Shown piece after piece: positions 44,179-47,384 of a DNA stretch of 59,692 nt; the first letter of the stretch is position 1; the number at the start of each line of letters is the position of its first letter. The notes under the pieces were generated by a model, which was given only the letters and a program-made list of their open reading frames with translations, searched no databases and was not told the origin of the DNA. This DNA comes from Patescibacteria group bacterium UBA6816. GTDB taxonomy: Bacteria; Patescibacteriota; Patescibacteriia; UBA2591; UBA6264. The stretch spans positions 1-59,692 of the forward strand of contig DKES01000021.1 of NCBI GenBank assembly GCA_002452615.1. Reading direction: 5' to 3'. The translations under genes and the position numbers were made by a program.

Positions 44179-44436
44179 CTATTCTAACATTTCTTCTTCC
44201 ATTTCTGGTTCAGCTTCCATTTCTGGTTCAGCTTCCATTTCTGGTTCAGCTTCCATTTCTGGTTCAGCTTCCATTTCTTCTTCAGCTCCTATTTCTGGTT
44301 CAAAAGTTTCTGGCATTTCCTCTTCAAACATTTCCTCTTCTGGTTCTTCTTGTACTGGTGCCATGGTACAACCACTCACTAAACCTAGAACTAAAACTAG
44401 ACCAAGAAAAGAAAATAAAAATTTTGATTTCTTCAT
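44179..44436 (-). CDS. acidic repeat lipoprotein (85 aa from ATG 44436)
   Basis: Signal peptide plus lipobox MKKSKFLFSFLGLVLVLGLVSGC. Four perfect 18-nt repeats at 44209..44280 encode EAEPEM. The track ORF start at 44523 is an upstream extension that overlaps the neighbouring gene. Confidence 0.7.
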   Translation of the reverse strand: MKKSKFLFSFLGLVLVLGLVSGCTMAPVQEEPEEEMFEEEMPETFEPEIGAEEEMEAEPEMEAEPEMEAEPEMEAEPEMEEEMLE

Positions 44437-44482
44437 AAACGTGATATAATTAGATTTATTAAATTTTTTAAAACTTTCCCCC

Positions 44483-44947
44483 CTACAGCATTTCATTATA
44501 TATTTCGTCATAAATATTGTCAACCACTGCTCTAACTACTTTTCCTTCTTCGTTTACTGTCACTACAATCATATGAGTAACTTCTTGTTCAACCAATTCC
44601 TCTTCAGCTGAAAGGTCTCCATAACCTGGATAATCAGAAACAAAACTAAAAGAAAATTCTGTTCCCCCACTAGCTCTAATCGGGTCTCCCTCAATCATTA
44701 AATTTTTTCCAGAAAAAACATAAGTTGGAGAAAAATTTAAAACCCAATTTTGAGCAATTTCTTGTTCTTCGCTTTTATCTTCAGTCTCGATAATAACTGG
44801 TTCAGCTATAACTTCATTTTCTTCTAGTTCTGATTCTTCTTCAGCTCCTAATTCTGGTTCTTCTTTTGGGGCCATGGTACAACCACTCACCAAACCTAGA
44901 ACTAAAACTAGACCAAGAAAAGAAAATAAAAATTTTGATTTTTTCAT
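44483..44947 (-). CDS. lipoprotein (154 aa), paralogous signal peptide
   Basis: The lipoprotein signal MKKSKFLFSFLGLVLVLGLVSGC is identical to that of the downstream gene. Confidence 0.75.
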   Translation of the reverse strand: MKKSKFLFSFLGLVLVLGLVSGCTMAPKEEPELGAEEESELEENEVIAEPVIIETEDKSEEQEIAQNWVLNFSPTYVFSGKNLMIEGDPIRASGGTEFSFSFVSDYPGYGDLSAEEELVEQEVTHMIVVTVNEEGKVVRAVVDNIYDEIYNEML

Positions 44948-45076
44948 AAAAACTTAAATTAAATAATTATTGTTAAACAATCTTATTTTAACTCAATCTA
45001 TTTAAGGTGTCAACTCTTTTAAACCCCTATCCCTCTTATTCAGATTTAATCTGAACAAGAGGGTTTAAAATCACCA

Positions 45077-46270
45077 TTAATCTATCTTTAATAATTTTCC
45101 AACATAATCAACATCTTTATCTCCTCTACCAGAAAGATTTACTACTATTATCTTATCTTTACTTAATTGAGGGACAATTTTTATTGCCTGGGCCAAAGCA
45201 TGAGCACTTTCTAAGGCTGGAATAATTCCTTCTACCTGACTTAATAAAGAAAAAGCTTTTAAAGCTTCTTGGTCATTAATGGTCACATATTCAACTTTTT
45301 TTTGGTCCTTAAAAAAAGAATGTTCTGGCCCAACCCCAGGATAATCTAACCCCGAAGCAATTGAGTGCACTGGTTGAGGCTCTCCTTTTTTATTTTGTAA
45401 AAGATAAGTAAACATTCCATGCAAATTTCCAGGAGAACCTAAAGTTAAGGTCGCAGCGTGGTCACCGGGACGAAAACTTTTACCCGCCGGCTCCACTCCA
45501 ATCATTTTAATTTTATCATCAAGAAAAGCATTAAATAATCCCATGGCATTAGAACCTCCTCCAACACAAGCAATTAAATAATCTGGTAACCTGTTTTCTT
45601 TTTTTAGAATCTGTTTTTTTGCTTCTTTTCCCACCACTGATTGAAAATCTCTAATCATCATTGGATAAGGATGTGGGCCCACTACTGAACCAATCCCAAA
45701 AAAAGTATTTTTAAGGTCGTGAAGATAAGCTTCAAAAGCGCTATCAACAGCATCTTTTAAACATTTTCCACCCTTATTAACCGTTACTATTTTAGCTCCT
45801 AATATCTTCATTCGCAAAACATTGGGATGTTGCTTTTTAATATCAATTGCTCCCATGTGAATCTCACATTTTAATCCCGTAATAATGGCGGCGGTAGCCA
45901 GGGCTACTCCGTGTTGCCCTGCCCCGGTTTCAGCTAATAATTTCTTTTTTTTCATGCTTTTGGCCAATAAAGCTTCTCCTAAAGTATGATTAATTTTATG
46001 AGCGCCAGTATGATTAAGGTCTTCTCTTTTTAAATATATTTTGGCTCCTCCTAATTTTTTAGTTAAATTTTTTGCCAAAAATAATGGTGAAGGTCTTCCC
46101 ACGTAATCAACTAAAAGCCGTTGATATTCTTTTTGAAAAGACTTATCTTTTTTCATCTCTTGATAGGCTTTTTCAATTTTTACTAACTCTTTTTTTACTT
46201 CTGGAGGAACGATTTGTCCACCGTACTGGCCAAAAAATCCTTGTTTATTAGGTAATTTTATTTTTTTCAT
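45077..46270 (-). CDS. trpB: tryptophan synthase beta chain
   Basis: [13 protein letters not shown], the PLP-lysine motif [11 protein letters not shown], and GGGSNAMG. 397 aa. Confidence 0.93.
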
Positions 46271-46380
46271 AAAAATTAAATTAAATTAAAAAAATTGATA
46301 AATAAAAACTAATCCTCTTAAACCAATAATAGGTCGCCAAATTTTTAAAATAAAATTTAATTTTTCTTTTTTTCATTAGT

Positions 46381-46410
46381 AAAAATAAAAAACCGCCTAG
46401 TAGGCGGTCC
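46381..46410 (-). terminator. attenuator terminator (segments 3:4 plus U-tract)
   Basis: The minus strand reads GGACCGCC-tacta-GGCGGT followed by TTTTTTATTTTT. Confidence 0.75.
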
Positions 46411-46435
46411 TAAATTAAAAGATTAATAATCAAAA

Positions 46436-46498
46436 CTACCGCCTACCAAAAGAGGCGGTCCACCAGTTTAAATTGAATTTAATCAATAAAGATTTCAT
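46436..46498 (-). CDS. trp leader peptide, 20 aa, MKSLLIKFNLNWWTASFGRR
   Basis: ATG at 46498, TGG TGG at 46465..46460, TAG at 46438..46436. The Trp codons lie directly 5' of hairpin segment 1, and the stop codon is embedded in segment 2. Confidence 0.7.
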   Translation of the reverse strand: MKSLLIKFNLNWWTASFGRR

Positions 46499-46504
46499 AT
46501 CTTT

Positions 46505-46532
46505 ATATTAGTTTAAATCATTTTTTAGTCAA
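46505..46532 (-). promoter_or_regulatory. promoter of the trp leader (TTGACT-16 nt-TAATAT)
   Basis: The minus strand has TTGACT (46532..46527), a 16-nt spacer and TAATAT (46510..46505). The leader ATG starts 7 nt after the -10. Confidence 0.55.
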
Positions 46533-46580
46533 GTTAATTTATCCCCTTAAAATTCCCTCCCTCAGCAGCACTTATAAAAA

Positions 46581-47384
46581 CTACTTTTTCAATAATTCTT
46601 CTTCATAAACAGGCCTTTTTCTTTGATAAAAAATACCTAAAGGAATTTTAGAATTATTATCTTCATAATCCCACTCTTTTATCTTCTTAATTATTTCTTG
46701 GTCAGATTTTAAATCACCTTTTTTCATTTCATACACTCTTTGATTGTAAAAATCAGTGGTGTCAAAAAAAGTAATACAAGGCTGAAGAATTTCAATAAAA
46801 GAAAAACCTTTATGTTTAGCTCCTTTTTTAATCAAATCTTGAAGGTGATTAATTTTCATAGAATATCCTCGAGCAATAAAACTGGCCCTTAATGAAAACA
46901 TTAAGCTTAAGGGATTAAATGACTCTTCAATGCTTCCTTGAGGAGTTGATTTTCCTTTAAATCCTTTGGGCGAAGTTGCTGTAAATTGGCTAGTGGTTAA
47001 AGCAAAATTTCTATTATTATGAACTAAAACCGTAAGGTCAGTGTTTCTTTTAGCGGCGTGAATTAAATGGGCAATTCCCTCATTATAACAACCTCCATCT
47101 CCAATAAATACAATAACCTTGAGCTTAGGATTGGCCATTTTTATTCCTTGAGCTGAAATAACTGGTCGTCCATGTAAGGAAGAAAAGCTGTTTAAATTTA
47201 TGTAATCAATAATTTTTGAGCTACAGCCAATCCCACTTACTAAAACTATTTCTTCTTTTGGGGTTCCTTTTTTTATCATTTCAGCAACGACTCCTTTTAG
47301 AGCGGCTAAAATAGCAAAATTACCACATCCTGGACACCAAGTATTTTGCGCTGAAGTTTCTAATTTTATATTTTTATCAGACAT
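46581..47384 (-). CDS. 2-oxoacid:ferredoxin oxidoreductase beta (TPP-binding) subunit
   Basis: NTWCPGCGNF motif and the GDGG TPP-binding motif (FIGDGGCYNEG). Confidence 0.92.
   Translation of the reverse strand: MSDKNIKLETSAQNTWCPGCGNFAILAALKGVVAEMIKKGTPKEEIVLVSGIGCSSKIIDYINLNSFSSLHGRPVISAQGIKMANPKLKVIVFIGDGGCYNEGIAHLIHAAKRNTDLTVLVHNNRNFALTTSQFTATSPKGFKGKSTPQGSIEESFNPLSLMFSLRASFIARGYSMKINHLQDLIKKGAKHKGFSFIEILQPCITFFDTTDFYNQRVYEMKKGDLKSDQEIIKKIKEWDYEDNNSKIPLGIFYQRKRPVYEEELLKK

Follow-up and report, generated by a model that had tools for sequence, protein, structure and literature searches.

The window analysed here, contig DKES01000021.1 of Patescibacteria group bacterium UBA6816 at its full length of 59,692 nucleotides (nt), carries on its minus strand a stand-alone trpB gene for the beta chain of tryptophan synthase. 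The gap upstream of trpB comprises 310 bases and, with the minus strand read over 46150..46700, holds all elements of a putative tryptophan (Trp) attenuator. A sequence-only reading of the same DNA had proposed a ribosome-mediated attenuator of the Escherichia coli trpL type in this gap, and the promoter, the leader open reading frame (ORF1) with its adjacent Trp codons, the four pairing segments, the U-tract and a further 31-codon frame (ORF2) all lie on the minus strand where that reading had put them. The features are as follows.

46505..46532, minus strand: sigma-70-type promoter found by pattern scan, with -35 hexamer TTGACT (46532..46527), 16-nt spacer and -10 hexamer TAATAT (46510..46505)
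46498..46436, minus strand: ORF1, predicted 20-codon leader peptide MKSLLIKFNLNWWTASFGRR plus TAG stop, from sequence reading and ORF list
46465..46460, minus strand: tandem TGG TGG, codons 12-13 of the 20 in ORF1
46459..46453, minus strand: segment 1, ACCGCCU, beginning at the base after the second UGG and expected to be covered by a ribosome that stalls on UGG
46438..46447, minus strand: segment 2, GGUAGGCGGU, with core AGGCGGU (46444..46438); alternative partner of segment 1 or segment 3
46438..46436, minus strand: TAG stop of ORF1, whose first base is the last U of segment 2
46431..46437, minus strand: short U-run AGUUUUG directly 3' of hairpin 1:2; site called terminator-like by pattern scan
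46399..46408, minus strand: segment 3, ACCGCCUACU, with core ACCGCCU (46408..46402); 5' arm of the predicted terminator and antiterminator partner of segment 2
46381..46398, minus strand: segment 4, AGGCGGU (46398..46392), and U-tract UUUUUAUUUUU (46391..46381); predicted intrinsic terminator together with segment 3
46376..46281, minus strand: ORF2, 31 codons, single Trp codon at 46325..46323, from the ORF list
46270..45077, minus strand: trpB, 397 amino acids, by TIGR00263

Trp accounts for 2 of the 20 residues of ORF1, against 1.2% of the residues in the long ORFs of the window. Only 6 nt separate the -10 hexamer from the ATG of ORF1, so that transcription is predicted to begin at or beside the AUG and ORF1 is probably leaderless; the sequence-only reading had both hexamers and the 16-nt spacer right, but had counted 7 nt in this last gap. 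A Shine-Dalgarno (SD)-like core precedes only 2 of the 44 long ORFs in the window, and in a genome so nearly free of SD sequences their lack before ORF1, ORF2 and trpB is no argument against translation. The window suggests that leaderless and SD-independent initiation are common in this genome. Segments 1 and 3 are the same heptamer, as are segments 2 and 4; four of the five copies of ACCGCCT in the 59.7-kb window fall in this leader, whose fold scores z = -4.9 against dinucleotide shuffles. ORF2 starts 16 nt past the first U after segment 4 and ends 10 nt short of the trpB ATG.

The energetics of the leader allow alternative pairings of these segments. Hairpin 1:2 folds with -11.8 kcal/mol, and hairpin 3:4 forms a stem of 7 base pairs (bp) with a 3-nt loop. 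Of the 6-8 bp formerly assigned to 3:4, the eighth is sterically impossible; the 9-bp 2:3 helix described alongside it is present, but its extent was understated, as it can reach 10-12 bp (GGUAGGCGGU : ACCGCCUACU). Masked folds, in which the bases that a ribosome would cover were set unavailable for pairing, yield two outcomes. With the second UGG in the ribosomal A site, the best structure is a 12-bp 2:3 helix that closes a small hairpin, and the terminator is lost; with the ribosome at the stop codon, the best structure is the terminator, at -14.1 kcal/mol including flanking pairs. The antiterminator reaches -20.1 kcal/mol with segment 1 masked, compared with -11.0 kcal/mol for 3:4 alone, and 2:3 is therefore able to compete with 3:4. 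Insufficient stability of 2:3 had been named as a possible weakness of the proposal, and the trpL-type logic is instead supported by both masked folds.

TrpB-based scans of genome and metagenome collections retrieved 160 loci (designated by L numbers), and upstream regions were compared. The closest relatives, with 67-79% TrpB identity, are almost all Patescibacteria of the candidate phyla radiation (CPR), namely Parcubacteria, Moraniibacteriota, Gracilibacteria, Falkowbacteria, Pacebacteria, Berkelbacteria and Saccharibacteria; the identical TrpB protein also occurs on contigs of the uncultured-bacterium assembly GCA_002440775.1. The leader plan was found upstream of trpB in 46 distinct CPR/Patescibacteria sequences. 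In these, the leader ORF has 14-24 codons, with two adjacent Trp codons in 33 loci and a single one in the others; segment 1 lies directly 3' of the Trp codon or codons, and the stop codon falls 6-27 nt past the last of them, within or next to segment 2. A U-run follows segment 2 (TTT in 41 of 43 aligned relatives, TTTT in 29), and segment 3, segment 4 and the U-tract stand 62-85 nt past the Trp codons. Directly upstream of ORF1, 34 of the 46 loci have a promoter (TTGACA-like, 16-18 nt, TAnnnT), and its gap to the ATG is exactly 6 nt in 26 of those 34, against a background rate of 0.6% at an arbitrary position.

The segment sequences vary by lineage yet remain complementary (ACCGCC/GGCGGU, ACUGCC/GGCAGU, CUACCC/GGGUAG, CACACCUUU/AAAGGUGUG and others). 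Covariation was tested against 500 shuffles on a plain MAFFT alignment of 43 leaders that was not fitted to the pairings. For 1:2 and 3:4 taken together, 86.1% of cells are paired, compared with 33-53% when the partner is slid, and 64 double changes are seen where shuffles give 24.5 (0/500 reach this number); for the antiterminator 2:3, 87.0% of cells are paired (slid partner, 26-50%), with 30 double changes against 13.6 in shuffles (0/500). RNAalifold, given no hint, predicts both hairpins, with compensatory changes in nine of ten pairs. In masked folds, the 5' arm of the terminator pairs upstream, as an antiterminator, in 76% of the 46 loci when the ribosome sits on the Trp codon, and the terminator forms in 46 of 46 when it sits at the stop; the 76% falls to 4% with a shuffled upstream part and to 21% when upstream parts are exchanged between loci. 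Cognate duplexes of segments 2 and 3 average -14.0 kcal/mol and non-cognate ones -9.5 kcal/mol. Conservation of the Trp mini-ORF and of the four-segment pairing, which the sequence-only reading had put forward as a check, is thus borne out in 46 orthologous loci, with compensatory changes for each of 1:2, 3:4 and 2:3.

A covariance model built from the alignment of the relatives matches the window once, with 76.5 bits and E = 8e-12, the next best match elsewhere in the window having E of at least 0.12; each CPR locus contains one copy, always just 5' of trpB. A generic genome repeat or terminator motif was considered and excluded: ACCGCCT is almost limited to this locus, a gapped pattern matches nowhere else, and the covariance model matches only here. 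The gene upstream of the leader differs among loci (a tRNA, a Trp repressor, others), which indicates that the leader moves with trpB. This bears on the possibility that the hairpins are tandem intrinsic terminators ending the upstream 2-oxoacid:ferredoxin oxidoreductase operon (stop at 46581), with the short ORFs there by chance. The pattern scan does call both hairpins terminator-like, and they lie 3' of a same-strand operon, free of convergence; however, a conserved promoter intervenes between the upstream gene and the hairpins, the element stays with trpB regardless of what that gene is, and the Trp codons, their frame, the stop position and the 2:3 complementarity are kept with covariation, none of which a plain terminator needs. 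Given that promoter and the tie to trpB, we reject this explanation as extremely unlikely.

At some loci the upstream gene is itself related to Trp. A Trp_repressor-family gene (PF01371, 71-72 bits) lies immediately 5' of the leader ORF in L011 (2585..2833) and L018 (2436..2756), and L007 and L092 have the same Trp_repressor-like upstream gene as judged by eye. These four loci, with the order trpR-leader-trpB, have no promoter before ORF1; a purine-rich stretch stands at that place.

A permissive Rfam scan over 45900..46900, with matches listed at E <= 10, returned Phe_leader with 24.9 bits (gathering score 55), RF00513 Trp_leader with 20.1 bits (E = 0.29; gathering score 41) and the RF04312 trpB motif with 23.4 bits (E = 1.2; gathering score 59), the last matching only a generic hairpin plus terminator; T-box gave no match at E <= 10 in this region. 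Recognition by the Rfam Trp-leader or T-box model, a check suggested by the sequence-only reading, is therefore not found. With these models below threshold or silent, the element would be trpL-like in function without belonging to the Trp_leader family.

The trpB motif of Firmicutes and Fusobacteria is classed as an orphan candidate, for which its authors could not decide among riboswitch, protein-binding site and classic attenuator (PMC11109978). Their indecision and the weak match here speak for a second alternative, in which the leader acts as an RNA switch that binds a ligand or a protein (a riboswitch, a T-box, a TRAP-like target or RF04312), an effector stabilises one conformer, and translation of ORF1 is irrelevant. 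That match, however, is far under the gathering score and rests on generic features, and T-box models are silent. No TRAP site is apparent either, as 228 nt contain 6 irregularly spaced (G/U)AG triplets compared with nine to eleven at 2-3 nt spacing in such a site. Loops and spacers are unconserved, leaving no aptamer-like core, and the conserved features are an ORF that opens where the transcript is predicted to begin, UGG codons adjoining segment 1 and a stop codon located at segment 2. We consider an RNA switch of this kind very unlikely.

On the basis of anatomy, energetics, conservation and covariation, the leader is very probably a ribosome-mediated transcription attenuator that tunes trpB to the supply of charged tRNA-Trp; as parts of this reading we infer the transcription start, the pause, the coupling of transcription and translation, and the Trp response. 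Transcription would begin at or beside the AUG of the 20-codon ORF1. Hairpin 1:2 would fold behind the polymerase and, with the short U-run, probably pause it until a ribosome on the leaderless ORF melts 1:2; by analogy with the 1:2 pause hairpin of the E. coli trp leader, hairpin and U-run are a candidate pause or weak terminator holding the polymerase until the ribosome comes. When Trp-tRNA is scarce, the ribosome would stall on UGG UGG and mask segment 1, leaving segment 2 free to pair with segment 3; no terminator would form, and the polymerase would continue into ORF2 and trpB. When Trp-tRNA is ample, the ribosome would reach the UAG that overlaps segment 2 and mask that segment, such that 3:4 and the U-tract would form and transcription would stop about 110 nt upstream of trpB. 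Read-through transcripts would next present ORF2 to the ribosome.

At the level of sequence, all the hallmarks of a trpL-type attenuator are present. Several observations nevertheless weigh against attenuation of this type. Folded without constraint, the leader is most stable as a nested 1:4 + 2:3 hairpin of -34 kcal/mol, and the model therefore hinges on the order of folding during transcription, as in E. coli. Moreover, ORF1 has one Trp codon only in 13 of the 46 loci, masked folds with the ribosome on the Trp codon or codons still favour the terminator in 11 of the 46, and no Rfam leader family matches at its gathering score. Ribosome-mediated Trp attenuation is a known kind of control; no description of a Trp attenuator in CPR/Patescibacteria was found in the searched literature, and its occurrence there is apparently not yet described.

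The gene that the leader would regulate encodes a canonical beta chain of the TrpB1 type, not TrpB2 (TIGR00263, 549 bits against a cutoff of 392). Its best solved relative in the PDB is the reconstructed ancestral LBCA TrpB, which is noted for high stand-alone activity (PMC11917138). Searches by tblastn found no TrpA in the window and none within 2.5-3 kb of trpB in 63 related loci, making this a locally lone trpB, which fits indole salvage. Trp is absent from TrpB of the window and from all 61 full-length orthologues in CPR (among L001-L117), where about five would be expected at the 1.2% of the window; the enzyme should therefore be makeable under Trp shortage.

ORF2, which the sequence-only reading had left with the remark that it may or may not matter, calls for amendment of that view: it is strongly conserved and, on sequence grounds, appears to be part of the system. 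About 38 of the 46 loci have it, starting 7-30 nt past the start of the U-tract in the relatives. Its Trp is invariant (38 of 38), at residue 13-19, and is followed by Arg in 30 and Gln in 6. The motif Y-Y-F-Y-N-R-[ACSG]-T-[E/Y]-x-W-R, in summary form YYFYNRxTExWR, uses ACG, ACT, ACC and ACA for its Thr, and positional entropy is highest at third codon positions (1.29, compared with 0.95 and 1.08). The peptide is therefore constrained, as third positions vary and codons are exchanged synonymously. Beyond W-R, the tail is unconstrained and runs for 1-19 residues. In a six-frame search of 1.0 Mb, 35 of 38 matches to the motif fall at this position, and an exhaustive phmmer search of 1.84 billion representatives found no match to ORF2, as expected for an uncalled ORF of 31 amino acids. 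ORF2 is missing from two CPR sub-clades and from Actinobacteria; an SD-like sequence stands before trpB instead of ORF2 in the trpR-linked CPR sub-clade and in Actinobacteria.

From its conserved peptide and invariant Trp codon, ORF2 is suggested to act as a further Trp-related checkpoint, which would operate on translation or on the stability of the mRNA. ORF2 was also considered as a regulatory arrest peptide of the TnaC, SpeFL and Erm-leader type, in which the nascent peptide itself, not only its codons, would be conserved and the ribosome would stall at a defined codon; in ORF2, the peptide is conserved as far as W-R, with synonymous codon exchange and a free tail. Two structural models for ORF2 were tried and rejected. 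In an ermC-like model, its Trp region would sequester the trpB start; the start region does not differ from shuffles in openness, and its pairing with the Trp region lies below that of shuffles. Pairing of the Trp region with segment 2, 3 or 4 gave equal duplex energies for cognate and non-cognate combinations.

Some relatives have an insert of 50-170 nt between ORF2 and trpB with long GC-rich inverted repeats, for example CACCCCGU...ACGGGGU, which closes right before the ATG; the inserts lie at about 2900-3000 in L008, 2850-3000 in L014, 600-870 in L022 and 640-800 in L088. Such an insert may represent a mobile repeat or an additional structured element.

The position of ORF2 raises a third alternative, that control is mainly post-transcriptional: the folds and the two upstream ORFs would govern translation of trpB, by re-initiation or occlusion, or decay of the mRNA, rather than termination. 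In a genome with so few SD sequences, an ORF2 stop codon that lies 10 nt from the trpB ATG, and within 50 nt in most relatives, is consistent with this view, and there are precedents in re-initiation past leader ORFs (PMC4833913) and in translational control by a Trp-codon leader in the Bacillus subtilis anti-TRAP operon (cited in PMC4027176). However, the conserved U-tract right after 3:4 typifies an intrinsic terminator, the trpB start is predicted to be open and unpaired with the ORF2 Trp region, and the spacing between the ORF2 stop and trpB is variable, ranging from overlapping frames to as much as 170 nt. As a replacement for transcription attenuation we regard post-transcriptional control as quite unlikely; it may well be an extra layer rather than a rival.

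To our knowledge, gene regulation has hardly been characterised in CPR/Patescibacteria, organisms of minimal metabolism that cannot be grown alone. A conserved attenuator would imply that CPR bacteria rely on close timing of transcription and translation, that they translate leaderless short ORFs, and that a single salvage step (indole + serine -> tryptophan) is tuned to the charging of tRNA-Trp. The leader is a compact, sequence-defined element that could be tracked in metatranscriptomes to report when uncultured cells are starved of tryptophan, and in ORF2 there is a definite candidate for a novel sensory peptide.

Promoter-like sequences were also noted elsewhere in the window. In several genes, such as those starting at 1584 (plus strand) and 54158 (minus strand), the ATG follows a TATAAT box at a distance of 6 nt, which together with the scarcity of SD cores suggests the leaderless initiation mentioned above. 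Downstream of trpB, at 44179..44947 on the minus strand, two neighbouring ORFs share an identical lipoprotein-type signal peptide, MKKSKFLFSFLGLVLVLGLVSGCTMAP, and one of them has an acidic EAEPEM repeat tail. A consensus or near-consensus promoter (TTGACA-17-TA(T/A)AAT) lies at 45013, upstream of the first of these ORFs, and a second at 44523, at the upstream end of the second frame and ahead of its internal signal-peptide ATG.

Outside the CPR, the TrpB proteins next in similarity (59-66% identity) belong to Actinobacteria (Leucobacter, Micrococcus, Gleimia, Boudabousia, Luteococcus and others). This phylum has established Trp attenuators of the classical kind (Corynebacterium, Streptomyces; Seliverstov et al. 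2005, PMC1262725), but those published belong to trpE-type operons, unlike the lone trpB here. A related leader was found in 12 actinobacterial loci (L033, L046, L053, L054, L058, L061-L065, L068 and L149), some 60-260 nt upstream of the trpB match; for such stand-alone trpB leaders, no description was found in the searched literature. These leaders resemble those of CPR: their -10 box stands 6-7 nt upstream of the ATG, their peptide ends with ...WW(T/A/S)(A/V)-stop, and a CCGCC/GGCGG hairpin is followed by a second hairpin and, in most, a U-tract. Unlike the CPR leaders, they have the stop codon in the loop of the 1:2 hairpin, longer terminators, no ORF2 and a Shine-Dalgarno sequence before trpB. 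The antiterminator is rarely seen in their masked folds, and their logic may therefore differ in detail; the CPR covariance model matches 3 of the 12 weakly, with 26-30 bits. The actinobacterial and CPR leaders are nonetheless probably of common origin, and the similarities suggest that gene and leader share a history and move together in the two groups.

These observations can be combined with those on ORF2 into a broader proposal, possible though doubtful as a whole, that ORF2 represents a new class of regulatory nascent peptide within a two-tier sensor and that a cassette has been exchanged between Actinobacteria and CPR. The first 15 or so residues of ORF2 may then pause the ribosome at the invariant Trp codon, the cue being perhaps Trp-tRNA, free tryptophan or the substrate indole; transcription attenuation may be followed by a peptide-dependent checkpoint, translational or at mRNA stability, on the indole-salvage enzyme; and the cassette swapped between the two groups may consist of the leaderless WW leader and the Trp-free lone TrpB.

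For two-tier control through ORF2, the nearest precedent would be the B. subtilis anti-TRAP operon, in which T-box attenuation is followed by a Trp-codon leader peptide, rtpLP (Chen & Yanofsky 2004, cited in PMC4027176). The two systems would share a transcriptional sensor of Trp-tRNA and then a Trp-codon ORF just 5' of the gene, which makes rtpLP a possible analogue of ORF2. By the same account, they differ in that the first tier in B. subtilis is a T-box, and in that rtpLP has three Trp codons, no conserved peptide and a fixed spacing from its stop to the Shine-Dalgarno sequence, whereas the spacing of ORF2 is variable.

Other parallels concern the leaderless ORF and the setting of trpB. Leaderless sensory polycysteine short ORFs are established in mycobacteria (bioRxiv 10.1101/834739); there too the sensor is a leaderless first cistron, and a ribosome stalled on cognate codons flips the RNA structure, whereas the CPR switch would be an intrinsic terminator. 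The trpR-(TrpL)-trpBA locus of Chlamydia trachomatis belongs to a reduced genome that retains tryptophan synthase for indole salvage (PMC7755916, PMC6504234); it likewise has a Trp-codon leader before trpB, and its trpR-leader-trpB order resembles that of CPR loci L011 and L018 (PMC7755916). Chlamydia differs in keeping trpA, in the iron-dependent repressor YtgR and in a much longer leader (PMC7755916, PMC6504234), and the window itself has no trpR beside the leader.

The closest match in overall logic is E. coli trpL. Both leaders have a short ORF with tandem UGG, mutually exclusive pairings 1:2, 2:3 and 3:4, an intrinsic terminator made of 3:4 and a U-tract, a stop codon placed such that the ribosome would cover segment 2, and a 1:2 hairpin that likely acts as a pause. 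The CPR leader departs from this textbook case in that ORF1 is apparently leaderless, lacking a 5' untranslated region and a Shine-Dalgarno sequence; in its repeated heptamers, segment 1 recurring as segment 3 and segment 2 as segment 4; in its presumed control of a single lone trpB rather than trpEDCBA; and in having a second conserved Trp-containing ORF past the terminator.

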